From an uncultured Enterobacterales bacterium (GTDB lineage: Bacteria > Myxococcota_A > UBA796 > CAJQPC01): DNA of 64,000 nucleotides. Below the pieces are notes generated by a model, which searched no databases, was not told the origin of the DNA, and saw nothing but the letters and a program-made list of their open reading frames with translations. A program made the position numbers and the translations under genes. Shown in pieces: positions 690 through 56,400 of this stretch; position 1 is the first letter of the stretch, and each line of letters begins with the position of its first letter. The stretch lies in the NCBI GenBank assembly GCA_964519895.1, contig CAZFLE010000008.1, positions 25,767 through 89,766 on the forward strand. Reading direction: 5' to 3'.

Positions 690-1295
690 CTATCCGTTCT
701 GACCTCTGGCGGCTTCGATGAATGCGCGGACCCGGTCGGGGTCCTGGCGCCCCGGCTCGTGTTCCACCCCAGACGCCACGTCGACCCCCCAAGGGGCCAC
801 CGCCGCGATGGCATCCGCCACGTTGTCCGGACGCAGTCCGCCGGCCAGGATCATCGAGCCCAGGCCGCGGCAGCGGTGGGCCAGGGCCTCGTCGACCCGC
901 TGGCCGGTGCCGCCAGCCTTGCCCAGCACATGGGCGTCCAGCAGGAAGCGATCGGGCGCCCAGGCGCGGATCTCTGCCTCCACGTCCCGGTGGGCTCGGA
1001 AGGCGCGAAAGGCCGGCACCCCCAGCCACGCCGTGTGGGCCGGGGTCACCCGCCCGTGGAGCTGGAGCGAGCTCGGCGAGATCGCGGCGACCAGGTCTAC
1101 GAGCTGGTCTGCCGTGCGATCCACGAGCACCAGCACCGACTCCACCGACACGGCCCCGGCGATCTCGGCCGCCAGGTCCACCGAGATGGATCGGGCCGAA
1201 GGCGCGTGCAGGTTCAGCCCCACCGCATCGGCCCCGCAGCGCTCGGCCCACAGCGCCTGTTCCACCGTGCGCACGCCGCAGATCTTGACCCACAT
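690..1295 (-). CDS. trpF: Phosphoribosylanthranilate isomerase
   Basis: 201-aa ORF starting [28 protein letters not shown], typical of the PRAI N-terminus. It sits between trpC and trpB with a 7-nt gap to the trpC stop. Confidence 0.85.
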
Positions 1296-1302
1296 GGTGC
1301 CC

Positions 1303-2061
1303 TCAGCCCCGCAGCGCGGCGAGGGCCGCGCCGGGGTCCGGTGCCGTCATCAGCGACGTGCCCACGAGCAGGGCGTCGGCCCCGGCTGCCCGCATCCGGT
1401 CGCGGTCCGCCACCGTGTGGATGCCGGACTCCGCGACCTTGACCACGCCCGCTGGGACCCGCGCCAGGAGCGTCTCGCTGGTCGCCAGATCGATCGCCAG
1501 GGAGTGCAGGTCCCGGTTGTTGACGCCCAGGATGCGCACGCCGGCGGCCAGGGCCCGGTCCAGCTCGGGCCCGTCGTGCACCTCCACCAGGGGCTCCATG
1601 CCCAGTCGACGGGCCTCGTCCATGCACGCCACGAGCTCCTCGTCGGAGAGCATCGCCACGATGAGCAGGCAGCTGTCGGCGGTGGCCACCCGGGCCTCCC
1701 GCACCATGCGCGGGCTGACCAGGAAGTCCTTGCGCACCACCGGGATGTCCACCGCGGCCCTGACGGCCCGCAGATCGTCCAGGGAGCCACCAAAGCGCGG
1801 CAGATCGGTCAGCACCGAGATGGCCGCGGCGCCGGCCGCCTCGTAGCTCTGGGCGATGGCCACCGGATCCGCGCCGGGTCGGATCTCACCCCGAGAGGGC
1901 GAGCGGCGCTTCACCTCGGCGATCCAGGCCAGGTCGGGTCCGTTCAGCGCCGCTAGCAGGTCCCGCGGCGGGGGCGCCTGAGCGGGATCGCCGACCCCCT
2001 CCAGGGCGAGCTGGGCGTCGTGGCGCAGCTTGTCGGCGCGGACGCGCTCCAAGAGGCTCAT
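1303..2061 (-). CDS. trpC: Indole-3-glycerol phosphate synthase
   Basis: 252-aa ORF containing IAEVKRRSPSRGEIR and VLTDLPRFGGSLDDL, which are IGPS motifs. It sits in trp operon context. Confidence 0.9.
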   Translation of the reverse strand: MSLLERVRADKLRHDAQLALEGVGDPAQAPPPRDLLAALNGPDLAWIAEVKRRSPSRGEIRPGADPVAIAQSYEAAGAAAISVLTDLPRFGGSLDDLRAVRAAVDIPVVRKDFLVSPRMVREARVATADSCLLIVAMLSDEELVACMDEARRLGMEPLVEVHDGPELDRALAAGVRILGVNNRDLHSLAIDLATSETLLARVPAGVVKVAESGIHTVADRDRMRAAGADALLVGTSLMTAPDPGAALAALRG

Positions 2062-2070
2062 GGGCCGCGG

Positions 2071-3336
2071 CTATCCCTGGCCGGTGGCCGGGTCGACCCC
2101 CAAGGCCCGGAACATCTTCTCCTCTTGCCAGCGCTGAAAGACCCGGAAGTGCCGGTCCGCGGCGTAGTGCCCGGTGGTCAGGTAGACAAAGGCCCGCAGG
2201 GGCGTGGTCCTGTCCGGGTGGTCCAGCAGCCGATGGGCTTCCCAGAAGAGCCCCTCGGTGCTGCGGTTGTTGCCGTACCAGTACCGGGCGAGCCGCAGGT
2301 AGGCGCGGTACTCCTGGCGAGCGCGGGTGGCGTAGCCGTCCAGGTCCCCCTGGAGCAGCGCGACCGCGGCCCCGAGTCCGGTGCGCACGGCGAAGTCGAC
2401 CCCGCCGCTCAGGATGGGGTCGACAAAGCACGCTGCATCCCCGATCAGGACCCAGCCGGGGCCGTGCAGCTGTCGGTGGGTAAAGGACCAGTCCCGGGCG
2501 TGGTGCAGGGTCCGACCGGCGACCTGGGCCCTGTGCGCACCGGCGAGGGGCAGCCCCGCCAGGGCCAGGGCTTCCTCGAAGTCCTGCTCGGACAGGCGGG
2601 TGCGGCCGCGGTGGACCACACCGACGCTGGTCCGCTCCGCGCTCACAGGGATGAACCAGACCCAGCCCTGGGGAACCGAGACCACCCACTGGACCAGCCG
2701 GCCCAGCACCCCGGGCACGCCGCCCGCACCGTCGAAGTAGGCATAGGTGGCGGTGCTGCGCAGGTCCTCGACGGTGCGGGTCAAGCGGAAGGCCCGTCCC
2801 AGCAGGCATCGCTGGCCGCTGGCATCGACGACGTGGTCGGCGCTCAACTCCTCGGGCCCATCAGGGCCTCGTGCACGCACACCGGTCACGCCGCTGGCGT
2901 CCCCCAGTGGCCCCACGACCTCCCAGCCGTGCCGCACGTCGACGCCCACGACTCGGGCAGCCCCCAGCACCAGGTCGTCGAACACCGCTCGGTCCACGTT
3001 GTAGGCGTGCTCGAAGCCCCCGTCCCGCAGGCCCGCTGCGTCGAGCGCGTCCACCTGGGACTCCAGGGCCGGATCGAAGAGCACGGACCACGGCTCCTGG
3101 TGCTCCCCCCACACGTAGACCGCCCCGTACTTTCGGGGGAAGCCCGCAGCGTCAAGGGCCGGCCCAAGCCCGAAGTGCCGATCGAGCAGGGTCAGGGTGG
3201 CCGGCTGAAGGGACTCCCCCACGTGATGCCGGGGAAACTCGGCGCGCTCGAGCAGGGTCACGTCGGCCCCTTCGGCCGCCAGCAGCCCGGCACAGGCCGC
3301 GCCCCCCGGGCCGCCGCCGACGACGATGACCCGCAC
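2071..3336 (-). CDS. FAD-dependent enzyme with the flavin-dependent halogenase motif set
   Basis: 421 aa. It has GGGPGG at aa 7-12 (GxGxxG), FPRKYGAVYVWG with Lys69, GWVWFIP at aa 224-230 (WxWxIP), and LFWEAHRLL near the C-terminus. It lies 9 nt upstream of the trpC start and 2 nt downstream of the cytochrome gene stop. Confidence 0.7.
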   Translation of the reverse strand: MRVIVVGGGPGGAACAGLLAAEGADVTLLERAEFPRHHVGESLQPATLTLLDRHFGLGPALDAAGFPRKYGAVYVWGEHQEPWSVLFDPALESQVDALDAAGLRDGGFEHAYNVDRAVFDDLVLGAARVVGVDVRHGWEVVGPLGDASGVTGVRARGPDGPEELSADHVVDASGQRCLLGRAFRLTRTVEDLRSTATYAYFDGAGGVPGVLGRLVQWVVSVPQGWVWFIPVSAERTSVGVVHRGRTRLSEQDFEEALALAGLPLAGAHRAQVAGRTLHHARDWSFTHRQLHGPGWVLIGDAACFVDPILSGGVDFAVRTGLGAAVALLQGDLDGYATRARQEYRAYLRLARYWYGNNRSTEGLFWEAHRLLDHPDRTTPLRAFVYLTTGHYAADRHFRVFQRWQEEKMFRALGVDPATGQG

Positions 3337-3338
3337 CC

Positions 3339-3689
3339 TCAGGTCCCGGGCTCAGCGCACGTCAGCCACCACACCAGCCGCTGGCGGTCGTCGGGCTCGA
3401 CCCCACCCTGGGGCGGCATGGTCGGCGGGTCCGTGCCCGCTCGGGCCAGGATGCGGTCCGCCTGGTCCCACGCCTGGTCCACCGTGTCGAAGGACACGTC
3501 TTCCGGGGCACCGAAGCGCTCCTCTGCTGCGCTGGCGTGACAGCCCTGGCAGGCCTCGATCAGGAAGCCCTGCCCCCAGCTATTCCACGTCACTGTCGCG
3601 GCGTCGGCGCAGGCCGTGTCTCCGAGCACGGTGTCCGTGGCCGAGTCGTCGACCGTGCCGCTGCAGGCGCTGAGCAGGAGCCACACCAT
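3339..3689 (-). CDS. Small lipoprotein, monoheme c-type cytochrome-like
   Basis: 116 aa. It has a lipobox LLLSAC, a single CxxCH (CQGCH) and a candidate distal Met in PPTMPPQGG. It is wedged between trpD and the halogenase-like gene. Confidence 0.6.
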   Translation of the reverse strand: MVWLLLSACSGTVDDSATDTVLGDTACADAATVTWNSWGQGFLIEACQGCHASAAEERFGAPEDVSFDTVDQAWDQADRILARAGTDPPTMPPQGGVEPDDRQRLVWWLTCAEPGT

Positions 3690-3709
3690 GGCGGGAGCCT
3701 ACCCGACCC

Positions 3710-4726
3710 TCAGGCCTGGGTGGCCGCGACCAGGGCCGCCAGGGTGTCCTGGACCGCTCCGCTGGCGAGCACGTCCAGCGCTTGCGCGACGCCCTCACGC
3801 AGGTCTTCGGCCCGCCCCGCCGCGTAGAGCGCTGCGCCGGCCCCCAGGGCCACAGCGTCCCGGCGAGGCCCGGTCTCACCGCCGAAGATCGCCCGCAGGA
3901 TCTCGGCGTTGTGCGTCGCGTCGCCGCCGCGCAGGGCTTCGAGCGGCGCGGGCGCCAGCCCGACCTGTTCTGGGGTGACCGTCCAGGAATGCAGGGTGCC
4001 GTCTCGCCACTCGGCCACCTGGGTCGGGCCGGCCAGGCTGAACTCGTCGATACCCCCGGCCCCATGCACCACCAGCGCATGGACCGCACCCAGCTCTCCC
4101 AGCACCCGACCCAGGGGCTCGACCCACTCGGCGCCGAACACCCCGACGACCTGTCGGCGAGCCCCGGCGGGGTTTGTGAGCGGGCCCAGCACGTTGAAGA
4201 CGGTGCGCACGCCGAGCTGGCGTCGGGGGCCCACGGCGAAGCGCGTCGCCGCATGGTGGGCCGGCGCGAACAGGAACGCGATGCCGACCTCCTCGAGCAC
4301 CCGCCCCAGGGTCTCTGGCGGCAGGGTCAAGTTCAGGCCCAGGGCCTCGAGCACATCGGCCGAGCCGCTCTTGCTGCTCACCGAACGGTTCCCGTGCTTG
4401 GCCACCGTCGCGCCGGCCGCCGCGGCGACGAGCGCTGCAGCGGTGGACAGATTGAATGTGCCCGAGCGGTCCCCGCCGGTCCCGCAGGTGTCCACCGGGT
4501 CCAGGCCGGGGGCCACTGGAATTCCGGTCGCGTGCCTTCGCATGATCCGCGCGGCCGCGGCGATCTCGTGCACCGCTTCGCCCTTGGTGCGCAGCGCGAT
4601 CAACAGCCCGGCGATCTGGGCTTCGGTCAGCTGCCCCTGGAGCATGGCGTCAAAGGCCGCCTCGACCTGGGCGGTGGACAGGTCCTGGCCGGCGAGCAGG
4701 AGCTCGAGCAGTGGGGCGACGTTCAC
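3710..4726 (-). CDS. trpD: Anthranilate phosphoribosyltransferase
   Basis: The ORF contains [26 protein letters not shown] and [21 protein letters not shown] place the start at the GTG at 4724-4726, which forms a GTGA overlap with the trpG stop. The track's longer 4858 start adds an Arg/Pro-rich non-homologous extension. Confidence 0.9.
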
Positions 4727-5295
4727 AGGGTCCCCTGGAGGAAGTGGGTGAGGAGCGCCATGCCGTGCTCGGTCAAGATCGACTCCGGGTGGAATTGGAC
4801 TCCGGCGACGGGCAACGAGACATGGCGAAGGCCCATGATCTCGTCGTCGTCGGTCCACGCGTTCACCGCGAGGCAGTCGGGCAGGCTGGCCCGGTCCAGC
4901 GCCAGGGAGTGGTAGCGCGTCGCGGTGAACGGGCTGGGCAGGCCGGAGAACACGCCGCTGCCGTCGTGGTGGATGGGCGATGTCTTGCCGTGCATGAGCC
5001 GCTTGGCCGCCACGACGCGGCCCCCGAAGTGCTGGCCGATGGACTGGTGCCCCAGACAGACGCCCAACAGCGGAATCTCGCCGGCGTAGCGTGCGATGGC
5101 GGCCAGGGAGATGCCCGCCCGATCCGGGTCACATGGGCCGGGGGAGATCAGCAGGCGATCGGGCGAGCGCGCCCCGATCGCCTCGACCGGGATCTGATCG
5201 TTGCGCACCACGTCGACCTGGGCCCCCAGGACCTGGAGGTACTGGACGATGTTCCAGGTGAAGCTGTCGTAGTTGTCGATGACCAGGACGTTCAT
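4723..5295 (-). CDS. trpG: Anthranilate synthase component II (glutamine amidotransferase)
   Basis: 190 aa, starting [20 protein letters not shown]. It contains [12 protein letters not shown] (catalytic Cys) and GVQFHPES. Confidence 0.92.
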
Positions 5296-5302
5296 GGTGT
5301 GA

Positions 5303-6826
5303 CTACAGCCCCTGCTCGGCGAGCTCGAGGGCCCGGAGCACGGCCCCCCCCTTGTTCAGGGTCTCCTGGTACTCGCTGGCGGGCACCGAGTCGGCCACGA
5401 TGCCGGCGCCCACCTGGAGGAACCAGCGCTCGCCCTGGCGCCAGGCGGTGCGGATCGCGATCGCCAGGTCCATCTGGCCGTCGCCCCGGACCCAGCCCAC
5501 CGCCCCACCGTAGGGCCCCCTTGGGACCGGCTCCAGCTCGTCGATGATCTCCATCGCCCGGACCTTGGGCGCCCCGGACAGGGTGCCTGCGGGAAACGTC
5601 GCCCGGACCGCGTCGAAGCCGTCCCGACCCGGGGCCAGCAGTGCACGCACGTCGCTCACGATGTGCATCACGTGGGAGTAGCGCTCGATCTTCATCAGCG
5701 CGTCCACGTGGACCGACCCCGGGGCCGCGACCCGGCCCAGGTCGTTGCGCGCCAGGTCCACCAGCATCACGTGCTCGGCGACCTCCTTGGGGTCCGCCAG
5801 CAGGTCTTCGGCCAGGGCCAGGTCCTCGGCCTCGTTGGCGCCGCGATGGCGCGTGCCGGCGATCGGGCTCACCCAGGCCTGGTCCTCGGCGACACGGACC
5901 ATCACCTCGGGGGATGCGCCGGTGACCAGCTGCTCCGGGTAGCGCAGGTGGAACATATAGGGCGACGGGTTCACGGCCCTGAGGGCCCGGTACAGGTCCA
6001 GAGGATCGCCGCTGAAGCCCAGCCGGAAGCGGTTGCTGAGCACGACCTGGATGCAGTCTCCGGCCCGGACGTAGGCCTTGATGCGCGCGACACCGGCCTC
6101 GAAGGCCGGCTGGTCGAACTCGGGCTCCAGGGTGACCTGGTCGCCCCTGCGGGTGGGGCGCTCGGGCAGCGGGCCCCGGAGCTTGCCGATGATGCGGGCG
6201 ATGCGCTGGACCGCGCCCGCGTGGGCCACTCGGGGGTCCGTGCCCGGCTGGACCGTGACGACCTGGACCACGGCGATGCGGTGGCGCAGGTTGTCGAACA
6301 CCAACAGCGATCGGGGCAGCGAGAACACCAGCGTCGGGGCTGCGTCGGGCTCGGCGGTGAACGGCGAGGGCAGTCTCTCCCACCACCGGACGGCGTCCCA
6401 GGCCAGCCAGCCGACCGCTGCGCCCACCACGCGTGGCACCCCCTCGACGGGCACCGACACGGTCCGGCCCAGCTCGTCCTGGAGGAAGGCCAGGGGGTCG
6501 TCGCGCTCCTCGGAGCGATGGACCCAGCCGTCTCTCAGGACCTCGCACAGGCGTCCACGGGCCCGCACCACGAACGCCGGGTCGAAGCCGATGACGGAGT
6601 AGCGGGCCCAGCGCTCGCCGCCTTCCACGGACTCCAGGAGGAAGGCGTGCGCGTCGGGCCGGTCCAGGGGAGGCTGGCCGTCGCAGACCTTCATGAAGGC
6701 CGACACCGGCGTGTCCAGGTCGGCGAGGACCTCTCGGAAGACCGGGATCGAGACCGCCTGCCCTTCGTGGGCCTGGGCCAGCGCGACGAAGTCCTCGGCC
6801 GTCGGTGTGATCAACGCTTGCTCCAA
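5303..6826 (-). CDS. trpE: Anthranilate synthase component I
   Basis: 507 aa with chorismate-binding family motifs ([26 protein letters not shown]). It has a TTG start per the track. It is the first gene of the minus-strand trp string. Confidence 0.9.
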
Positions 6827-17780: not shown

Positions 17781-18956
17781 TCAACGAGCCCCCACCACGC
17801 TGGATGCTGCCTCGAGCTGTGGGTCGGGCGGTGGGGCCAGAGGAGACGTGGTCACCATGGGGACCACGTCGACCAGCACGTCCGGCCACAACCCGGTGCC
17901 TGCCCAGGATCGGCCCTGGGGTGAGCGGAACGTGGCGTCGAGCAGGCGCACCCGAAGGCCGGTGGAGAGTTGGTGGACATCGGCCCCACAGGCCCGCCCC
18001 GCGGTCGGGGTGCCCACGAGCACGGCCCGCCCTTGCTCTTGCAGCGCTGCGCCGAACAGCTCGGCCACGCTGGCCGTTCCAGCGTTGACCAACAGGGCCA
18101 TTGGCGCGCTGAAGGACACCGGCGTTCGGGCCATCAGCAGGCGCTCTTCTTGATCTCTTCGGCGCACCATGCCCACCACCGAGTCGGCTTCCAGGAACAG
18201 GTCTGCTGCGGCCACGGCTTCCTCGAGCAGACCGCCAGGGTTGTCCCGGAGATCCAGCACCACCGGCGCTTCGCCGAGTCTGGACAGCGTCTGGGCCAGG
18301 ACCTCGGCGGTTCCTTGACCGAAGTGGGCGACCCGGATCACCACGGTTGGGCCGTCGGTGACCACTCGGACCGCCGGGACCCGGAACTCGCCGGGCGTCA
18401 CGGTCAGGGCCCTGCTGACACCTGCGCGGTCGAGCACCTCCAGCGCGACGGGACGCCCACTCAGGCTCGCTGCCGTCTCATACATCTCGGGGGGGGTGCG
18501 GCCGTAGAAGCTGATGCCCCCCATGCTGATGATGGCCTCGCCGGCTCGCAGGCCGGCGACCGCGGCCGGTCCGCCTTGGTAGACATCGAGGACCAGCAGG
18601 CTGTGTCCCGGCACGGCCAGGAGCTCCACCCCGATGCCCTGGTAGACGCCCCGTGCGAGCTCGTCGTAGGGGTCTGGCTCGTCGACGCCGTAGCTGCCGT
18701 TGGCCTGAAAGCCCTGCAGCTGGTCCAGGTGAGCCAGCATGCCGTCGATGGCGGCACGGTACAGGGCGTTCGTGTCGACCGGATCGACGTAGTGGGCGCC
18801 GATCAGCTTCAGCGCTTCCTCGAGGGCTGCTGCGCTCTCGGTCGCGTCGGCGTCCGGCGCGAGCACGTCCGACTGGCGCAGCGCATCGGCGTCAGGGTCG
18901 GCCAAGGAAGGGGACGCCACGAGGGCGAGCAGCGCCCAGGCGCAGGGCCCGGTCAT
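17781..18956 (-). CDS. S41 family C-terminal processing peptidase with PDZ domain
   Basis: It has a signal peptide, a PDZ-like GIGVEL...GGPAAVAGLRAGEAIISMGG, LRDNPGGLLEEAV and LVNAGTASVAELFGAALQ (Ser nucleophile region). Confidence 0.85.
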   Translation of the reverse strand: MTGPCAWALLALVASPSLADPDADALRQSDVLAPDADATESAAALEEALKLIGAHYVDPVDTNALYRAAIDGMLAHLDQLQGFQANGSYGVDEPDPYDELARGVYQGIGVELLAVPGHSLLVLDVYQGGPAAVAGLRAGEAIISMGGISFYGRTPPEMYETAASLSGRPVALEVLDRAGVSRALTVTPGEFRVPAVRVVTDGPTVVIRVAHFGQGTAEVLAQTLSRLGEAPVVLDLRDNPGGLLEEAVAAADLFLEADSVVGMVRRRDQEERLLMARTPVSFSAPMALLVNAGTASVAELFGAALQEQGRAVLVGTPTAGRACGADVHQLSTGLRVRLLDATFRSPQGRSWAGTGLWPDVLVDVVPMVTTSPLAPPPDPQLEAASSVVGAR

Positions 18957-18965
18957 GGACCAGCC

Positions 18966-19127
18966 TAGTCGGGTGAGTCTGAAGTTCGCGGGAATTCGCT
19001 TGCCCTCGACGCCGCTGGCGGCGTTCCGGCTCCTGGACGTGACTCGGCCACGACTGCGTCGCCGCGCCTTGCCAGCGACGCCGATTGCGGCGCGACTTCC
19101 GAAGCGAACATCAGGCTCACCCCACTA
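18966..19127. mobile_element. MITE-like 162-bp element, copy 1 (about 22-bp terminal inverted repeats, TA flanks)
   Basis: It aligns without gaps to 50268..50429 with 6 substitutions. Ends: TA-gtcgggtgagtctgaagttcgc ... gcgaacatcaggctcaccccac-TA. It has no coding capacity of its own. Confidence 0.7.
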
Positions 19128-19712
19128 GAAAGTGCCCCGATAGGGGGTCGTGGCGACGGTGCGGAACGTCGGGGTGGTCGCCGGGGTGGTCAGGGACGGG
19201 CGCTCCAGGGTGCCGGCGGTGCTCCAGAGGGGCGTCGGCTGCAGCACCGGCGCCGCTCGCGGTGCCTGGTCGGCTGCGGCCCCGTCGGTCACACGAGAGC
19301 GCTCGAGACTGTGCAACAGGCGGTCCTTGGCGGCGACGGCCTCGGCGGCCTCCAGGTGGCTGACCCAGGCCCAGCAGATCGCCGTGGCCAGGACCGCGGC
19401 GTAGGCGACCATGTGCACAGCCCCCAGTCGGACCTCGGAGGGCCACCACCGCTGCCGGTGAAAGGCCAGCCCCTGGGCGTCGAGCTGGTCGTACCGCGTC
19501 AACACACCTTCGAGCATGTCGGCCATGAACGGCTCTTGCTCGACGTCCTGGGGTCCGGTGCTCGGTCCGGGCTGGGTGGCCTGGAGGAGGCTCGCGTGGG
19601 CCTGGCAGGTGGTGCACTCGGCCAGGTGGTCCTCGACCTTGTGGGACTCGACAGACGTCAGTTCCTGGTCGAGCCAGGCCACGATGCGGGACCGGGTGCG
19701 CCGACAGCCCAT
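19125..19712 (-). CDS. Anti-sigma factor, zf-HC2 type, single-pass membrane
   Basis: Start MGCRRTRSRIVAWLDQEL, with GAGGAG upstream. It has the H-x3-C-x2-C motif HLAECTTC and one TM helix (VHMVAYAAVLATAICWAWV). It lies downstream of the ECF sigma gene. Its stop TAG lies at the repeat-element junction. Confidence 0.7.
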   Translation of the reverse strand: MGCRRTRSRIVAWLDQELTSVESHKVEDHLAECTTCQAHASLLQATQPGPSTGPQDVEQEPFMADMLEGVLTRYDQLDAQGLAFHRQRWWPSEVRLGAVHMVAYAAVLATAICWAWVSHLEAAEAVAAKDRLLHSLERSRVTDGAAADQAPRAAPVLQPTPLWSTAGTLERPSLTTPATTPTFRTVATTPYRGTF

Positions 19713-19807
19713 GGACTCCTCGGAATACGGCAGGCCGAGGCCGATCCTATAGCGGGAATCGGTTGGGATCACTGGAAACCACACGCCTTGGCCATGCCAG
19801 GGGCTCC

Positions 19808-20413
19808 TCAGACGCCTTCAGCCACGAGCGGGTGCTCTGGGCCCAGCACGCCGGCCAGACGAGTGCGGGCTCGTGACAGACGCGACATCACGGTCCCCAG
19901 CTTGACCTGGAGCACGTCGGCGATCTCGTTGTAGGAAAGGTCGTTGTAGTACCGCAGGAGCAGGATCTCCCGGTGTGCGGGCGTCAGGTGCTCCAAGGCG
20001 GCCATCATCTCCCCTCGCACCTCGCCCGCCAGCACATGCTCCGTGGCGCTCCGGGGAGGGAGCTGGGGCGCTGCCTCCTCCTGGCGGGTGTTCAGCAGGC
20101 CGCCCCGGCGCTTCTTGTCGCGCACGATGTTGAAGCACAGGTTCGAGGTCACTCGGAACAGCCACGCCTTCATCTGGAAGTCCGGCGTGAAGAAGCGAGG
20201 CTCCCGCAGGGCCTTGATGAAGACCTCTTGCACGGCGTCGTAGGCCTCTTGGGGATCACGCACGATGCAGAGGGCATGGTAGTAGAGCTTTGAGCGGTAC
20301 TTTCGCACGACAAGCTCAACCGCCAGGCGACGGTTCTCCTGGCTCAGGCGCTTGAGATCCCCGTCTTCCCAGCGAGTGGGGTCGGGGTGTGGCATGACCT
20401 TGACGGTTCCCAT
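19808..20413 (-). CDS. ECF (group 4) sigma-70 family RNA polymerase sigma factor
   Basis: Region 2 is YDAVQEVFIKAL...AWLFRVTSNLCFNIVRDKKRR. Region 4 is EILLLRYYNDLSYNEIADVLQVKLGTVMSRLSRAR. Confidence 0.9.
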   Translation of the reverse strand: MGTVKVMPHPDPTRWEDGDLKRLSQENRRLAVELVVRKYRSKLYYHALCIVRDPQEAYDAVQEVFIKALREPRFFTPDFQMKAWLFRVTSNLCFNIVRDKKRRGGLLNTRQEEAAPQLPPRSATEHVLAGEVRGEMMAALEHLTPAHREILLLRYYNDLSYNEIADVLQVKLGTVMSRLSRARTRLAGVLGPEHPLVAEGV

Positions 20414-32180: not shown

Positions 32181-33257
<1,077 letters not shown>

Positions 33258-47783: not shown

Positions 47784-48953
47784 ATGCTGAGCGGGCTGGA
47801 GGTGTTCCTGGAGGAAGAGGTGGCGAGCCTGCGGGACGCCCGCGTGGGGTTGGTCTGCAACCACACCGCCGTGGACCGGCGCCTGCGCCATGCCGTGGAG
47901 CTGCTGGCTGGCGCCGGGGTCCGGCTCACGCGCTTGTTCGCGCCCGAGCACGGCATCGCCGCCACGGCCCAGGACATGATCCCGGTGGACGGCGAGGACG
48001 GCGAGGTCGCGGTGATCTCGCTCTACGGGGACTCGGCCGCGTCGCTACGGCCCCAGCCCGAGGTGGTCGCGGATCTGGACGTGGTGCTGTTCGACATCCA
48101 GGACGTGGGCGCCCGCTACTACACCTACCAGGCGACCCTGGGGTATCTGATGGAGGTGGCGGCCCAGACCGACACCCGCGTCGTCGTGCTGGATCGGCCC
48201 AACCCCATCAACGGCGTCGACGTGGAAGGCAATGTGGTCCGCGAGGGCTTCGAGTCCTTCGTGAGCGCCTACCCCCTGGCCGTGCGGCACGGCATGACCA
48301 TGGGCGAGCTGGCGGGCTTCTTCCAGCGGCACTGCGGGGTCGGAGGCCAGGTGGACGTGGTGCGATGCCGGGGCTGGCGGCGGGATCAGTGGTTCGACGA
48401 GGTCGACGCGCCGTGGGTCTACCCGAGCCCCAACATGCCGACCCTGGAGACGGCGGTCATCTACCCGGGCATGTGTCTGATCGAAGGCACAAACCTGAGC
48501 GAGGGTCGTGGCACCACGCGGCCCTTCCACCTGGTCGGTGCGCCCTGGCTCCACCCGGGGCGCTTCACCCGGCTCTGTCGGCGAGGGGCCAAGGACAATG
48601 GCCTGACCGGGGTGGCCTTTCGCGAGGCCACCTTCTTGCCGCAATTCCAGAAGCACGCAGGTGTGGTCTGCGGCGGCACCGAGGTCCACGTCGAGGACCG
48701 CGACGCCCTGGAGTCCTTCCTGCTGGGCCTGGTGATCATCGAGGCCGCCCGGCGGGCGGATGCCGAGCACTTCGCCTGGCGCACCGAGACCTACGAATTC
48801 GTCGACGAGCCCATCGCCATCGATCTCTTGTGCGGCAGCCGCGACGCGCGGTTGGCCCTGGAGGCCCGGGTCCGACCCCGGGACCTCCTGGAGGGCTGGC
48901 GGGGAGAGCTGTCGGACTGGCTCGAGCGCCGGGAGAGCTGCCTGCTCTACTGA
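47784..48953 (+). CDS. DUF1343 family protein (exo-beta-N-acetylmuramidase NamZ-like)
   Basis: Start MLSGLEVFL (aa 13 of the track ORF). It contains LFAPEHG, DIQDVGARYYTY, LDRPNPING and RHGMTMGELA. Confidence 0.8.
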   Translation: MLSGLEVFLEEEVASLRDARVGLVCNHTAVDRRLRHAVELLAGAGVRLTRLFAPEHGIAATAQDMIPVDGEDGEVAVISLYGDSAASLRPQPEVVADLDVVLFDIQDVGARYYTYQATLGYLMEVAAQTDTRVVVLDRPNPINGVDVEGNVVREGFESFVSAYPLAVRHGMTMGELAGFFQRHCGVGGQVDVVRCRGWRRDQWFDEVDAPWVYPSPNMPTLETAVIYPGMCLIEGTNLSEGRGTTRPFHLVGAPWLHPGRFTRLCRRGAKDNGLTGVAFREATFLPQFQKHAGVVCGGTEVHVEDRDALESFLLGLVIIEAARRADAEHFAWRTETYEFVDEPIAIDLLCGSRDARLALEARVRPRDLLEGWRGELSDWLERRESCLLY

Positions 48954-50206
48954 CGTCGCCGGGCGAAGACCAGGCCCGGCAGGAGCCAGACCCAGGCGAC
49001 CGGCGGCGTGCGGGTGGCGGTGCAGCCCAGACAGCCCTCCTCGGCGGCGGGCGGCGGCAGGTCGGTGTCCCCTGAGTCGGCCGGGGCCGTGATCGTCCCG
49101 GTGTCGTCGGTGGTGACGTGGGGCCCTGTGTCGTCGGGCACGCTGGTGTCCCCGGTGTCGTCGGGGTCGTCGAAGGCGGCCAGGTCCAGGGTGAGCTCGC
49201 GGATCCGAGGCGACACGTAGCCAGGGGTCCCGGTGATGCGGTCATAGGTCAGCAAGAGCTTGTCGCCCTCGACCAGCATGGAGGGGCGCATGGACCCATC
49301 GGGCACCGGGTCGTCGGTGATCTGGTTCGTCTCCAGCAGGGTCCAGTCCCGGTCGAAGACGGCGATCCACAGGTCCCCCCAGTCGGACTTCCAGCCCTCG
49401 GACCAGGTCTGGTGCATGTAGGCGACCAGGAAGCGGTCTCCGACGGCCTGGACCGACTGGGCCCAGTAGACGCGGCTGTCGGGCGCGTCGTCGAGGGTGA
49501 GCACCGCCCGGTTGTCCAGCACCGTGAGGTCCCACTCCAGGGTGGCCACCTCGATGCTTCCCTGGAACTCGTCGGTGCCGACGTGCAGCAGCTTGCCGGT
49601 GTGCGGGTCCTCGAGCAGCGTCGTGCCTTCGGTCGAGAAGGGGGTGCCCAGGACCTCTTGTCGGGAGGTTTCCTGGGCGTCTTCGTCAAAGGTGAAGAAC
49701 CAGCCGCTGAAGGTGCTGATGTCGTAGAAGGCGGCGACGGTGCCCTGCTCCGAGCAGACCATGGCCATGTCGTTGAAGCGCAAGGTGCCGTGGGACTCCG
49801 AGATGGTGCTGTGGCCGAGGGTCTCGAAGGCCGCGTCGTAGCGCCAGGCGTAGCCACTGTCGTTGTGGGTGCCGACCCCGGCTGAGCCCACGTGGAAGTA
49901 GGAGCCGTCCGGGCACTTGCTGATGGCGTGGTCGTCCAGGGTGTTGAAGTCGGTGAGGCGCACCCGGTTGGCGTCCTGGACATCGAACTCGGCAGACATC
50001 TCGAGGAGGTTGTAGTCCCCGCCTGCGCCGAACAGGAAGTGCCAGGCGCCGACGTTGCTCTCGTCGGGGAAGAGCCGCACCCAGGAGCCGGCGAAGCCCG
50101 GCGTGATCTCCTCGCCGACGGCAGAGATGTGGGCGCTGTCCAGGGCCCAGGACGTGGCGGTGAGGAGCAGGAACACGTCGGACCTCGCTCGGGCATCTTC
50201 GCCCAC
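48947..50206 (-). CDS. Secreted hypothetical protein with MYXO-CTERM-like tail
   Basis: 419 aa from a GTG start, with a signal-like N-terminus. The C-terminus is EEGCLGCTATRTPPVAWVWLLPGLVFARRRQ. Confidence 0.5.
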   Translation of the reverse strand: MGEDARARSDVFLLLTATSWALDSAHISAVGEEITPGFAGSWVRLFPDESNVGAWHFLFGAGGDYNLLEMSAEFDVQDANRVRLTDFNTLDDHAISKCPDGSYFHVGSAGVGTHNDSGYAWRYDAAFETLGHSTISESHGTLRFNDMAMVCSEQGTVAAFYDISTFSGWFFTFDEDAQETSRQEVLGTPFSTEGTTLLEDPHTGKLLHVGTDEFQGSIEVATLEWDLTVLDNRAVLTLDDAPDSRVYWAQSVQAVGDRFLVAYMHQTWSEGWKSDWGDLWIAVFDRDWTLLETNQITDDPVPDGSMRPSMLVEGDKLLLTYDRITGTPGYVSPRIRELTLDLAAFDDPDDTGDTSVPDDTGPHVTTDDTGTITAPADSGDTDLPPPAAEEGCLGCTATRTPPVAWVWLLPGLVFARRRQ

Positions 50207-50267: not shown

Positions 50268-50429
50268 TAGTGGGGTGAGTCTGAAGTTCGCTGGAATTCA
50301 CTTGCCCTCGACGCCGCTGGCGGCGTTCCGGCTCCTGGACGTGACTCGGCCACGACTGCGTCGCCGCGCCTTGCCAGCGACGCCGATTGCGGCGCGACTT
50401 CCGACGCGAACTTCAGCCTCACCCCACTA
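50268..50429. mobile_element. MITE-like 162-bp element, copy 2
   Basis: TA-gtggggtgagtctgaagttcgc ... gcgaacttcagcctcaccccac-TA. The terminal inverted repeats match at 21 of 22 positions. It differs from copy 1 by 6 substitutions. Confidence 0.7.
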
Positions 50430-53400
50430 CAGGCCGCCCTCGCTCAGGATCCAGACGCCGCCGGCGTTGCTGCCGCCGGTGTCGGTCCCTGTTCCCCCGA
50501 TCAACAGGTCTGGCAAGCCGTCCCCGTCGGTGTCGGCCGCGCCCAGGCTGGTGCCTGCGGCGTCGTCGCCGTCGCCTTCGTGCAGGCCGTCGGCCGCGTC
50601 CAGCTCGGTGGTGCCCGAGGTCGGCGCGAGCACCACGAAGACCCTTCCAGCGCCGTCGGCGGCGTCGGGGGCACCCACCACCAGGTCCAGGTTCCCGTCC
50701 CCGTCCAGGTCGCCAGGACCCAGGATGGCCGCGCCGGAGCCGTCGTATCGCTCGGCGCCGTGCACCCGCCAGGCCGCGTCGACCAGGGATCCGCCGGAGA
50801 GGCCGTCGACCACGTAGGTCACCCCGGATGCGAGGGCTGCGCCTGTGGCGCCGGGCGCCCCGATGCCGATGTCGTCCAGGCCGTCGCCGTCGAGATCGCC
50901 CAGTCCGGCCACGGTCGTGCCGGCGTCGTCACCCCCGTCTTCGGCGGTCCAGATCGCGTCGGCGCTGGACAGGGTGAACGTGCCGCTGATCGGGCCGAAC
51001 ACCAGGTAGGCCGCGCCGCCGTCGTCGGTGCCCGGGGCGCCGACCACCACGTCGGCGAAGCCGTCGCCGTCCACGTCGCCTGCACCGGCCGCGGAGTGCC
51101 CGGCGTAGTGGTAGCGATCCTCGCCGACCAACAGGGCCGTTGCGCCGGCCAGGGAGCCGCCGGCGGTGGGGTCGGTCAGCACGTAGACGCCGCCCGCCTT
51201 GCTGCCGCCGGTGCCCAGACGCTCGGTGCCGACGAGCACGTCGGTGTTGCCGTCGCCGTTGATGTCGCCCGCCCCGGCCACGGCGTTGCCCGCCCGATCG
51301 TTGCCGTTCTCACCGGTCCACTCGGTGGCCCCGTTGGTGACCTTGCCGTTCCCGGTGGGGGCCGTCGTGATCAGGTAGACCGCGCCGGCCTTGTTGTCCG
51401 CCGTGCTGTCGTAGGGCCCGCCGACCACCGCGTCGTCGAGCCCGTCGCCGTCTACATCGCCCACGCCGGCGACGGACTGACCGATCTTGTCGTAGCGCTC
51501 GGCCCCATAGCGGCGGTGGCCCACGCTGTAGAGGGCCTGGGCGCCGGAGACCGGGCCGAAGACGACGTAGCTGGTGCCCGACTTGTAGGTGGCTTCGTCG
51601 ACCGTGCGCTTGTAGCCGGGGCTGCCCACCAGGAAGTCCTCGTAGCCGTCGCCGTCCAGGTCGCCGGCGCCGGACACCGAGGTCCCAGCTTCGTAGTCGT
51701 CCCCTTCGCCGTACAGGACCGCATCGGCTGCGCTGAGCCAGGTCGTGCCGTCCAGGCCACAGCCAGCGTCCAGGCCGTCGCAGTCGGAGTCCACCGCGTC
51801 GCCGCAGTAGTCCCGCTCGTCGGGGTTCACCGTGCGGGCGTCGTCGTCGCAGTCGCCGCCCGTCTCCGAGGCCTCGGCGGGCAGGCTGCAGGCGCTGACG
51901 GGGTTGTTGTCGTCGCCCCAGCCGTCGCCGTCCAGGTCGGCGTAGAAGGTCAGGGCGTCGGTGGCGCCGCCTTCGTCCGTGTCGCCGTCGCAGTCGTTGT
52001 CGACGTCGTCGCAGACCTCGGTGCCGTCCGGGTTGACCGTGGCGTCCTTGTCCTTGCAGTCCTCGCTGTTCTGGGTGGTGCCCGAGGGCTGGTCGCAGGC
52101 GTAGACGGGGTCTCGGCTCGCCCCGTAGCCGTCGCCGTCTTCGTCCTGGTACCAGGCGACCGCGTCCACGGCGTCGGGATCGTCGTCGGTGCCGTCGCAG
52201 TCGGAGTCGATGCCGTCGCCGCAGGTCTCGGCCGCGTTGGGGTGCATCGTCGCGTCGGCGTCGTCGCAGTCGGTGCGGTTGACCACGTAGCCGTCGGGCG
52301 CATCGCACGCGTCGACGGTGTCGGACACATCGCCGTACTCGTCGCCGTCGTCGTCGGCGTACCAGGTCGAGCCGGCGTCCTCGTCGGTGGTGCCGTCGCA
52401 GTCGCCGTCCAGGCCGTCGCAGATCTCCGGAGCCAACGGGTAGATCTCGGTGCGGGTGTCGTCGCAGTCGTCGTCCGTTGCCGCGTGGCCCGCCGGCTTC
52501 TCGCACGCCTGGACCGGGTCGCCGGCACCGTGGTGGTCGTTGTCGCCGTCGACGTACCAGGTGCTGGTGTCCGGGGCGTCCTCGTCGACGGTGCCGTCGC
52601 AGTCGTTGTCCTGGCTGTCGCAGAACTCGGCCGCGCCGGGGTGGCTCAGCGCCTCTCGGTCGTCGCAGTCCTGGGCATCCGTGGTGTAGCCGCTGGGCAT
52701 GTCGCAGGTGGCCGTCCAGCGGTTCGGGTCGCCGTAGCCGTCGCTGTCCTCGTCCCGGTACCACACCCCCACGTCCACGGCCGTGTCCTCGTCGACCATC
52801 TCGTCGCAGTCGTTGTCCACGGCGTCCTGACAGAGCTCGTCGGCGCCCGGGGAGACCGCCGGGTCGGCGTCGTCGCAGTCGTCGCCCTGGGCGACAGCAC
52901 TTGTCGGGGGGGTGCAGGCGATCACGCGGGTGTCGGGGTCCCCCCAGCCGTCGCCGTCTGCGTCGGTGTAGAAGCGGGTCGCGTCTTCGGCGCCCTCCTC
53001 GTCGACCATGCTGTCGCAGTCGTTGTCGACCCCATCGCACTGCTCCGTGGCGTCGGGGGAGATCGCCGGGTCGGCGTCGTCGCAGTCGTCGTCGTTGCGC
53101 ACCGCGCCCGAAGGCGCCATGCAGGCCTCGACGGCCTGGGCGGGATCGCCGAAGCCGTCGGCGTCGGTGTCGCTGTAGAACAGGTCGAAGTCGTCGCCGG
53201 AGTCCTCGTCGACCGCGTCGTCGCAGTCGTTGTCCACCAGGTCGCAGATCTCGGCCGCGTCGGGGTTGAGCGTGGCGTCACGGTCGTCGCAGTCCAGGAC
53301 CTCGGCATGGCCGGACTCGGGCTGTTCGCAGGCCACGCGGGACGAGAGGGCGCCGGCGTAGCCGTCGCTGTCGCGGTCCAGGTACCAGGTCGGCGCGTCG

Positions 53401-56400
53401 GCGGCCTCGCCCTCGTCGATGTCGTCGTCGCAGTCGTTGTCGAGGCCGTCGCAGTACTCGTCGGCGCCAGGGCTCAGGCCAGCGTCGTCGTCGTCGCAGT
53501 CTCCTCCGGCGCTGACGGTGCCGCTGGGGGCCTCGCAGCGCTCGACCGTGGTGGCGTCGTCGCCGTAGCCGTCGCCGTCGGCGTCGGTGTACCAGAGGGT
53601 CATCAGGGACTGGTCCTGGTGGATGCTGTCGGTCAGCATCGCCACGCCGCCGCCGGCACCGATCCCGGGGCCGCCCATCACCAGGTCGGGCAAGGCATCG
53701 CCGTCCAGGTCAGGGCTCCAGGCCACGGCCCAGCCCAGGTTGTCGTCGGACATCGCGCCTTCGACGGTTAGATCGGACTCGTCGGTGCTGCGCACGCCCA
53801 GGGGGGTACCGTAGAACAGGTGGACCGCGCCGGCCCGACCCCGGTTGCTGTCGTTCTCGCGGTTGGGGGTGCCCAGGGCGAGGTCGGGGGAGCCGTCGCC
53901 GTCGAAGTCGGCCCCGCCGGCCACCACGTAGCCCACGGGGCCCCCGCCGGTTCCGACGACCGTGGCGTCCGAAGCGGCCAGGTCCACCACCCCGGCGAAG
54001 GGAGACAGCGCCAGGTGCACGGCGCCGGTGACCTCGTGGGTCGCGTCCTCGGTGCCCGGTGCGCCGATGAGCAGGTCGTCGAGCCCGTCGCCGTTCAGGT
54101 CGCCCGCCGTGGACAGGGCGTAGCCGGCCAGGGCGCCTTCGCTCGAGCCGGTGAACACCACGTCGGCGTCCGCGGGGGTCAGATCCCCAGAGAGCGGACC
54201 GCGGAAGAGCAGGGCGGCCCCGGCGTCGGCGTGGGCCGTGTCGTCGCCCCAGGCCCCGATGAGCACGTCGTCGTGGCCGTCGCCGTCTGTGTCGCCCACG
54301 CCGGCCACGCTGTGGCCCAGGAGCAGGAGCGGCGCGTCCCCGCGGATTGCCGCGTCGGCGCTGTCCAGCATCCGGTCGCCGGTGATCGGGCCGTGCACGA
54401 GGTAGGCCGCACCGGACGCCGGGCCGTTGGGGTCGGCTTCGCTGGCGCCGATGAGCAGGTCGTTGAGTCCGTCCCCGTCGACGTCGCCCGCAGCAGCGAC
54501 GCTGACCCCGGCGAAGTCGCCACGGCGCTCGCCGACCAGGATCGCGTCGGCGGCCCCCAGGTCGACCTGGCCCGAGATAGGACCGGTGACGACGAAGACG
54601 GCCCCTTCGTGCCAGCCGTCCGCGGAGAAGGTCCGGCGGTTCGGGGCCCCGATGGCCAGATCGTCGTAGCCGTCGCCGTCGATGTCCCCCAGGCCGGCCA
54701 GGGTGTAGCCGGCCCAGCCGCCTTCGGTGTCGCCGAGCAATACGGCGTCGGCGTCTTCCAGGTCGACCTCGCCCAAGATGGGCCCGTAGAAGACGTAGAC
54801 CGCGCCGGCTTCGCCTTCGTCGCCGGGTGCACCGACCGCCAGGTCGTCGAGGCCGTCGCCGTCGAGGTCGCCGACCGCCGACAGGGCGTAGCCGGCGTCC
54901 TGGCCGTAGCGCTCTCCGGTGATCAGCAGATCGGCAAGGTCGAGCCCCTCCACCGGATCCAGGTCGGCAGGGATCTGATCGGTCCGGCCGTCGCAGTCGT
55001 TGTCGACACCGTCGCAGGTCTCGGTGGCTCCTGGATAGGCCGCGCCGTCGCTGTCGTCGCAGTCGGTGGCGTCGGCGACGGCGTCGCTGGGCTGGTCGCA
55101 GGACTCGACCGGGCTCGCGGCGTCGCCGAAGCCGTCGCCGTCGCCGTCTAGGTACCAGGTGAGCGACTCGCAGGGGTCTTCTTCGGGGGTGTCGTCGACC
55201 GGGTCGTCGTCTTCGGGGGGATCGTTGTCGCTGGGCAGGCCGGTGTCGTCGGGGTCGGGGTCCGGGTCAGCGGTCAGGCCGGTGTCTTGGGGCTCGTCGT
55301 CGGGCTCGTCGTCTGCGGGCTCGTCGTCGGGCTCGTCCTGGGGCTCGTCGTCGTCTGCAGGCTCGTCGTCGTCTGCAGGCTCATCTTCGTCCGCGTCGTC
55401 GGGGAGGTCGGTGACCGGGTCATCTTCTGGTGGGTCGTCGTCTACGGGCTCTTCTTCTACGGGCTCCTCTTCTACGGGCTCGTCATCGGTGGGCTGGTCG
55501 TCGACCGGGTCGTCGATGGGGTCCTCGTCCGCGGGGTCGTCGACCGGGTCGTCGACCGGATCATCCACCGGGTCGTCGATTACGGGGTCGTCGTCGGTGG
55601 TGTCGCCGCAGGCCTCCAGGCCCTCGTCGACGGCGCCGTCGCAGTCGTCGTCTCCTTCGTCGCAGACCTCGTCGGCCCCGGGAAAGGTCTGGGCGTCGGC
55701 GTCGTCGCAGTCGTCGGCGTCATCCAGGGCGCCGGGTCCGGCCTCGCAGGCCTGGACTGTCGTGTCGGCATCGCCGTGGCCATCGCCGTCTGTGTCTGCG
55801 AAGAAGTCGGCGCCCAGGTACTGCTCGGCGGCGTCGGCACCAGGGATCAGGAAGGCCGCACCGGCATTGCGCCCGCCGACGTCGTCTCTCAGCGCACCGA
55901 CGGCGAAGTCGGGCACGCCGTCCCCGTCGGTGTCGCCCGCGCCGGTCACACTGAACCCGGCCAGAGCGCCGGCCCCGCCGCGGGCCATCAGGGCGCCGTC
56001 ATCGAGGGTCAGGCTGCCGGTCACCGGTCCGGAGAAGAGCACGGCGCTGCCGAAGTCTCCGGCAGGTGCGCCGATCACCACGTCGCCCAGGCCGTCGCCG
56101 TCCACGTCACCCACGCCGGCCACGGAGAAGCCCGCGTCAGAGGACACGCCGTTGCCGTCGAGCAAGGTGTCCGCCAGCCCCAGGCTCAGCTCGCCGTCGA
56201 CCGGGGACAGCAGGACATAGGCCCGGTCCTGACCCGGGGCACCGACCAACAGGTCGGCCAGCCCGTCGCCGTCCAAGTCGCCGGCGCCGGCCACCGACGT
56301 GCCGGCGCTGGCAAAATCCGTCTCGCCGATGAGCACGGCGTCGGCGTCTTCCAGGCTGAGCTCTCCGGCCACTGGGCCGCGCACCAGGTAGACGGCCCCG

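Follow-up and report, generated by a model that had tools for sequence, protein, structure and literature searches.

The window, as we call the whole 64,000-nt stretch of DNA analysed here, is part of a metagenome contig with a G+C content of 70% and contains two copies of a short repeat, both at junctions between co-directional minus-strand genes (Table 1). Copy 1 sits in a run of genes for an ECF sigma factor, a zf-HC2 anti-sigma factor and an S41 peptidase, between the second and the third. ORFs and Pfam domains bear out an earlier note, made from the sequence alone, that had placed it there, 9 nt from the protease start (ATG at 18954-18956, minus strand). The anti-sigma stop codon (19125-19127) consists of the right-hand TA and the terminal base of the element. 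Copy 2 repeats this arrangement at the end of a gene for a long repeat protein, which also takes its TAG stop from the right-hand TA and the terminal element base.

Table 1 Features of the two element copies, their neighbouring genes and related tandem arrays (window coordinates unless a contig handle is given).
Feature	Coordinates	Strand	Remarks
ECF sigma factor gene	19808-20413	-	Pfam Sigma70_r2, Sigma70_r4_2, Sigma70_ECF; first of the sigma / anti-sigma / protease run
zf-HC2 anti-sigma factor gene	19125-19784	-	Pfam PF13490; TAG stop overlaps right end of copy 1
S41 (C-terminal processing) peptidase gene	17781-18956	-	Peptidase_S41; start 9 nt beyond left TA of copy 1
Copy 1	18966-19127	-	158-nt element 18968-19125 plus TA on each side; R1 match 18968-19125, minus, 148.7 bits
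Copy 1 left TA, target-site duplication	18966-18967	.	One TA (TTC-TAG) in orthologous empty sites
Copy 1 right TA, target-site duplication	19126-19127	.	With base 19125 forms the anti-sigma TAG stop, minus
Copy 1 left terminal inverted repeat	18968-18989	+	GTCGGGTGAGTCTGAAGTTCGC
Copy 1 right terminal inverted repeat	19104-19125	-	GTGGGGTGAGCCTGATGTTCGC, minus-strand reading
Copy 1 conserved core hairpin	18998-19096	-	66-74% identity to actinobacterial relatives
FG-GAP / MopE-repeat protein gene, 2364 aa	50427-57521	-	TAG stop overlaps right end of copy 2
Copy 2	50268-50429	-	158-nt element 50270-50427 plus TA on each side; R1 152 bits, minus
Copy 2 left terminal inverted repeat	50270-50291	+	Pattern match
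Copy 2 right terminal inverted repeat	50406-50427	-	Pattern match
Co-directional gene downstream of copy 2	48947-50206	-	No Pfam match; GC3 0.94; start 61 nt from element
Tandem array	L014 10046-10600		Junction CCAC-T-GTGG
Tandem array	L033 10036-10530		Junction CCAC-T-GTGG
Tandem array	L034 9999-10662		Junction GAC-TCGAAA-GTGG
Tandem array 1	L035 10180-10600		Junction CCAC-T-GTGG
Tandem array 2	L035 18380-18785		Junction CCAC-A-GTGG

Aligned over 162 nt, the two copies (18966-19127 and 50268-50429) differ by six substitutions (positions 5, 25, 33, 138, 145 and 150) and no indels, and repeat detection in the window recovered them as one family of 2 copies, 164 nt, at 96% identity. Their flanks are unrelated, and similarity ends at the element boundaries except for a CC common to the left sides. 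Each copy is a 158-bp non-coding sequence of 68% G+C with the layout TA-GTGGGGTGAG...CTCACCCCAC-TA, in which the string after the first TA is the 5' start of inverted repeats of 22-24 bp and the duplicated TA lies outside. Over the terminal 22 nt, the inverted repeats match at 19/22 positions in copy 1 and 21/22 in copy 2. A degenerate inverted-repeat pattern (GTNGGGTGAGNCTGANGTTCGC) matched the window four times, compared with 0.00 expected from shuffles, and all four matches are element arms. In its entirety the element is a long, imperfect palindrome around a conserved hairpin, and a small palindrome, ACGCCGC-TG-GCGGCGT, is located at 19009-19024 in copy 1 and 50311-50326 in copy 2. Copy number, substitutions, inverted repeats, TA flanks and internal palindrome are thus as the earlier note had given them, and so is the lack of coding capacity: searched against proteins as one concatenated query, the four stop-free frames had a sole match, a spurious ORF over a related repeat. 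The element lacks coding capacity of its own.

A third copy, 95% identical, was found by scanning metagenome contigs with the pattern and occupies positions 5559-5720 of L005, on contig Ga0209992_10000335, where its neighbours are a polyprenyl synthase gene and tlyA and the locus is unrelated to those in the window. Its junctions read ...CAC ATC TA[G...C]TA G ATG..., so the upstream TAG stop is again made of a TA and the first G of the element. The three copies, all that are known from the window and the metagenome contigs, occupy three unrelated loci at pairwise identities of 94-96%, have TA on both sides in every case and are all oriented alike with respect to the co-directional genes on either side (chance probability 0.25). 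Copy 1 is present in two independent assemblies, JGI 3300009481 (contig Ga0114932_10000099, 96 kb) and ENA ERZ27249630 (contig k141_195958). Neither an nhmmer profile nor a covariance model (R1), which recovered all known copies at 119-180 bits, found more diverged copies in the window, L005 or the orthologous loci.

Following S41 peptidase orthologues (65-82% identical) back to the contigs that encode them provided five lineages in which the sigma / anti-sigma / protease order is kept and the element is absent. Exactly at the insertion point of copy 1, the orthologue junctions have TTC-TAG, then 8-11 nt, then ATG. In the nearest relative (L037) the junction is cactttcTAGgcaggtcctATG, compared with cactttcTA[element]TAggctggtccATG in the window, and the empty-site sequence is TTCTAGGCTGGTCCATG. 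Given that the empty site has a single TA and the element is enclosed by two, the comparison shows copy 1 as an evident insertion into the TA of a pre-existing TAG stop codon, with the TA duplicated, even though the empty site by itself cannot separate TA duplication from CTAG duplication or from a T/A insertion without duplication. The first base of the element, G, restores the upstream stop (TA+G), which leaves the upstream protein as it was. The spacing from the anti-sigma stop to the protease start was 8 nt before the insertion and is 170 nt after it.

The reconstructed targets of the three copies are C-TA-G, C-TA-C and C-TA-G. The window has 11 CTAG sites where 175 would be expected, an approximately 16-fold deficit, and element ends account for three of them. 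The window has no TTAA where 32 are expected and 525 TA dinucleotides where 1423 are expected. One-third of the predicted window genes (15/45) end in TAG, which is high for a 70% G+C genome, and 17 of the approximately 77 TAs outside coding sequence fall within stop codons. If insertion were random among non-disruptive TAs, the probability of finding all three copies at stop codons would be approximately 0.01. Such placement suggests that the element prefers a sequence such as (C/G)TAG and that insertions within genes are selected against.

Bacterial MITEs, among them Correia, RUP and ERIC, have been described as elements of less than 200 bp with TA ends, terminal inverted repeats and transcripts that form long stem-loops (PMC2229807). 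The sequence studied here is small and non-coding, has inverted repeats and a TA duplication with an empty site, and is dispersed with unrelated flanks, all of which are MITE characteristics. The best explanation, which we regard as very probable, is a non-coding, TA-duplicating bacterial MITE with a transposase presumably supplied in trans; it is apparently an undescribed member of this well-known class. The earlier note's reading of a MITE-like element was right in kind, in view of the third copy, the five empty sites and the lack of an Rfam match. Having no transposase of its own, such an element would depend for cut-and-paste movement on a DDE transposase acting in trans from another genomic locus, most likely one of the IS630/Tc1-mariner type, the family that targets and duplicates TA. 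TA duplication is a hallmark of IS630/Tc1-mariner transposition (PMC2170065), and we infer the IS630 assignment from the fit of the target duplication. The copies are TA insertions in an NTAN/CTAG context, as for IS630-type elements; for copies 1 and 3, duplication of the 4 bp CTAG would fit just as well. The derivation from IS630/Tc1-mariner elements that the earlier note had proposed fits the TA duplication and inverted repeats; the parent insertion sequence was not found in the collections scanned.

The earlier note had also seen no transposase in the window, and this held: Pfam detected housekeeping domains only and no transposase domain among the predicted genes, and the pattern marks nothing beyond the four element arms. 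Scans of metagenome contigs, viral contigs and GTDB genomes (one representative per species) revealed no insertion sequence with matching inverted repeats, and in the same collections no second arm (L005 aside) or transposase lay beside any inverted-repeat pattern match. The single match among GTDB representatives (L003) is due to chance, only L005 among the ten metagenome loci is a real copy, and viral contigs gave nothing or low-GC chance matches. The other matches are single arms and, apart from L011, attributable to chance.

On L011, an unrelated contig of 56% G+C, 24 nt (445-468, minus) directly at the probable TAG stop of an AraC-like gene are identical to the TA and left inverted repeat of copy 2. 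The family core is absent and other hairpin repeats follow (GGCTTTAGCC). This match is apparently too exact for chance (about 1 in 1000 beyond the pattern). Another 24-nt inverted-repeat match, at 1718-1741 of L013 over the GTG start of a gene for a 548-aa large serine recombinase, was judged to be chance. The surrounding element, with FtsK-like and replication-initiator-like genes, resembles an actinomycete integrative conjugative element.

Relatives were found by comparing the translated element with protein databases and tracing spurious ORFs to the underlying DNA; an exhaustive protein search gave 26 representative clusters at E<=0.001. The related DNA repeats (L014, L033-L036 and L038) have units of 159-166 nt that end in GTGG...CCAC. 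One of the contigs, L035 (ENA ERZ25072384 ctg341730_266x_c), is a 3.38-Mb circle carrying WhiB, which we take as a marker of Actinobacteria in assigning its host. Local alignment of the element with an actinobacterial relative reaches a z of 20 against shuffles. The homology is centred on the core, with 66-74% identity to the window element compared with 44-59% in the outer arms, which differ (GTGGTCTGTCTG... against GTGGGGTGAGTCTG...). In the relatives, five of the seven left ends examined have TA in front of GTGG. Several actinobacterial units begin at an upstream gene's TAG stop, and the relatives as a whole show no uniform orientation with respect to adjacent genes.

Most relatives are tandem arrays of 2-4 units (Table 1), while L038 has a single intergenic copy. 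Units in L014, L033 and L035 are joined by a single base, whereas two insertions sharing a duplication would give TA. One possibility is that loss of a base from a palindromic CCAC-TA-GTGG froze a dimer, which then expanded by unequal exchange. A single related copy at 10189-10352 of L036 lies inside an AAA_14/DUF4143 ATPase gene that is now called as two ORFs; it is flanked by T...T, not TA...TA, and lies in an island with many HEPN, GmrSD and Schlafen-like genes. Hypothetical proteins P0001 and P0122-P0154 in public collections are translations of repeat arrays only, and one such pseudo-protein bears the precomputed Pfam label PF07131. Spurious ORFs can run through successive units because most frames are open and some units are 162 nt long, a multiple of three.

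The predicted RNA folds are very stable for both copy 1 (-101.4 kcal/mol, z -7.9) and copy 2 (-107.3 kcal/mol, z -9.9), and the overall range is -101 to -109 kcal/mol (z -7.9 to -9.9). Among the three copies, element positions 34-119 are invariant and 10 of the 11 variable sites fall in the outer 60 nt, with one in the inner 102 nt, a skew with a probability of about 3.5e-4 under uniform substitution. The core is thus more conserved than the inverted repeats both within the three copies and in comparison with the actinobacterial relatives, which is the reverse of the expectation for a MITE constrained purely by its transposase. Furthermore, in all members tested it is the same strand that has the better fold, by 10-30 kcal/mol with RNA and 5-18 kcal/mol with DNA parameters, and this is the minus strand of the window and the mRNA sense strand for copies 1-3. 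A double-strand cut-and-paste element has no need of such a strand bias.

These observations would fit a reading in which the core is a functional single-stranded module, either an RNA used by the host, for example in mRNA processing or stability at operon junctions, or a DNA hairpin recognised on one strand by its mobilising enzyme, and transposition is merely its means of spread. Besides the conservation and the strand bias, pairing supports it: in the core alignment of the two families, 28 predicted pairs are 100% paired and six show compensatory changes, compared with 0-1 in slid controls, and compensatory change occurs in 17/47 pairs of a ten-sequence alignment. However, the alignments effectively compare two deep lineages, and quasi-palindrome correction by template switching can yield compensatory changes without selection. 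Over the consensus pairs, the better-folding strand has 33 G.U cells and 4 A.C cells. Since this strand was the one used to predict the structure, the count is biased; counted by pair positions, the figures are 11 vs 4 (p ~0.06). The better strand is the sense strand of the flanking gene at L038 but antisense at L014, L034 and L036, the last of these copies lies inside a coding gene, local GC skew around eight loci has mixed signs, and no Rfam family matches. We consider this reading possible but doubtful. RNA, single-stranded DNA or a mutational process (quasi-palindrome correction) may each cause the strand bias and core conservation.

In its broadest form the proposal would unite the window element and the actinobacterial arrays in one undescribed cross-phylum family of TA-flanked units of about 160 nt. 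The strand-specific structured core, rather than the transposase-binding ends, would be conserved as a functional single-stranded module (RNA or ssDNA), carried into distant hosts on exchangeable inverted repeats and found preferentially at TAG stops of operon junctions. We put this forward only tentatively. According to a recent survey, no cluster of bacterial MITEs extends across phyla at 95% identity (PMC11602168).

A TA-duplicating MITE moved by an IS630-type transposase remains our preferred reading, and a different mover appears improbable. It could be an IS5-family transposase that duplicates CTAG or TA, or the element could insert with its own terminal TA next to a target TA and no duplication. 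Copies 1 and 3 have CTAG...CTAG flanks, which would allow a 4-bp duplication around an element TGGGG...CCCCA, the empty site TTCTAGG is equally compatible with TA and CTAG duplication, no IS630 partner was found in GTDB representatives or metagenome contigs, and the 1-nt junctions in the relatives' arrays are not predicted by simple TA duplication. However, copy 2 is flanked by CTAG...CTAC, which requires one extra later mutation under a 4-bp duplication, and every relative retains the terminal G...C (TA-GTGG in L014, L033, L034 and both L035 arrays), as fits a base of the element itself. A 2-nt target would also be atypical of single-strand transposons. TA duplication is preferred because it is perfect in 3/3 copies and the terminal G...C is kept family-wide. 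We give practically no credence to an immobile origin by segmental duplication, assembly artefact or chance palindrome: the window has only two copies and comes from a metagenome assembly, but the flanks are unrelated beyond the element ends with no longer duplication, the locus recurs in independent ENA and JGI assemblies and related elements occur in other organisms, and the precise empty sites in orthologues together with the third copy at an unrelated locus refute it.

Among known systems, the Correia elements of Neisseria (CREE/NEMIS) are alike in having long terminal inverted repeats, TA ends with TA duplication, a single long hairpin and neighbours that are often co-transcribed. Fetched Correia copies measure 155-157 nt including the TAs, compared with 162 nt here, and their ends begin with TA-TAGTGG, those of the element with TA-GTGG. 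A cognate transposase is known for neither (PMC2229807, PMC2649163). The element is 68% G+C without promoter-like hexamers and belongs to an uncultured marine bacterium of 70% G+C, whereas Correia is A+T-rich. A likeness in sequence (ends TATAGTGG..., GC-rich internal motifs) was not significant, with an E of about 1 for an HMM built from 10 real Correia copies taken from IMG/VR and local alignment z values of 3.8 and -0.1, and homology was rejected. The resemblance is thus one of architecture only.

RUP of Streptococcus pneumoniae, for which the partner insertion sequence IS630-Spn1 is known, is like the element in being non-coding, having inverted repeats and inserting at TA. Mobilisation of RUP in trans by an IS630-family transposase (PMC2229807) is the model we propose here; RUP has a matching insertion sequence, whereas none was found for the element in GTDB representatives, metagenome contigs or viral contigs. 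ERIC (IRU) of enterobacteria shares with the element an imperfect palindrome of about 130-160 nt, a transcribed intergenic location, TA ends and a centre conserved across distant hosts, but its terminal repeats are 7 bp compared with 22 bp. Orientation-dependent effects of ERIC on mRNA stability have been described (PMC2229807).

Identity with ERIC or other E. coli repeats was rejected, as blastn (word size 11, E<=1) gave 0 matches in 5,426 complete E. coli genomes. The window element had no blastn match in plasmid and phage collections, nor did an actinobacterial copy among plasmids. No known RNA accounts for it either: Rfam returned no family at E<=10 over 18700-19400 and none at E<=1 for the actinobacterial arrays. 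Literature searches with strings of the element sequence gave unrelated primer matches only. REP and REPIN sequences are palindromic units of 20-40 nt tagged GTAG or CGTC and accompanied by a RAYT gene; we rejected this class because the element here is one palindrome of 158 nt that has 22-nt inverted repeats and a TA duplication, and no Y1 transposase domain occurs among the window genes. Elements of the IS200/IS605 type have no inverted repeats, produce no duplication and insert 3' of a 4-5-nt target. Inverted repeats and a matching TA on both sides argue against this type, and the strand asymmetry of folding is the sole feature that points towards it.

At copy 1 the consequences for expression can be considered, given the known neighbours. 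Transcription of the operon would produce an element hairpin of about -100 kcal/mol with its base 9 nt from the protease AUG, which would break translational coupling from the anti-sigma factor to the protease. The TA duplication regenerates the stop codon and a weak UAGG upstream of the AUG. A scan for promoters and terminators found no sigma-70-like promoter or intrinsic terminator in either window copy. Correia and ERIC elements have been shown to act as RNase targets or mRNA stability elements (PMC2229807, PMC2649163), and by analogy the hairpin could be a target for double-strand RNases or a stability element. The most likely effects, if the analogy applies, would be loss of translational coupling and cleavage by a double-stranded RNase, and the predicted structure makes a role in processing, attenuation or occlusion plausible.

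The sigma / anti-sigma / protease operon has thus been altered recently, with 162 nt of strongly folding sequence now between anti-sigma and protease, and the locus is a natural test case for the effect of a MITE hairpin on downstream gene expression. Occurring in an uncultured marine bacterium and having homologues in Actinobacteria, the element is a counterpart of Correia and ERIC that is rich in G+C. Should its conserved, strand-biased core have a function, MITEs of different phyla would share a structured module, which is rare. It is in other respects an ordinary TA-duplicating MITE, and the cross-phylum core, the strand bias and the stop-codon habit set it somewhat apart from a routine repeat. 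For annotation the repeat should be masked, given that its relatives already yield spurious ORFs in protein databases.

Other features of the window deserve mention. The 2364-aa protein encoded upstream of copy 2 (50427-57521, minus) combines 12 or more FG-GAP repeats with 12 or more MopE-type metal-binding repeats, and the DNA of its gene contains families of periodic repeats of 170-210 nt. Approximately eight tandem GGTGTC hexanucleotides lie at 33114-33170 inside the gene at 32181-33257 (minus), where they would encode an Asp-Thr repeat, and this tract could be a site of length variation. A tryptophan operon (trpE, trpG, trpD, trpC and trpF) occupies 690-6826 (minus), and its trpD and trpC are separated by genes for a tryptophan-halogenase-like FAD enzyme (2071-3336) and a small cytochrome c (3339-3689).
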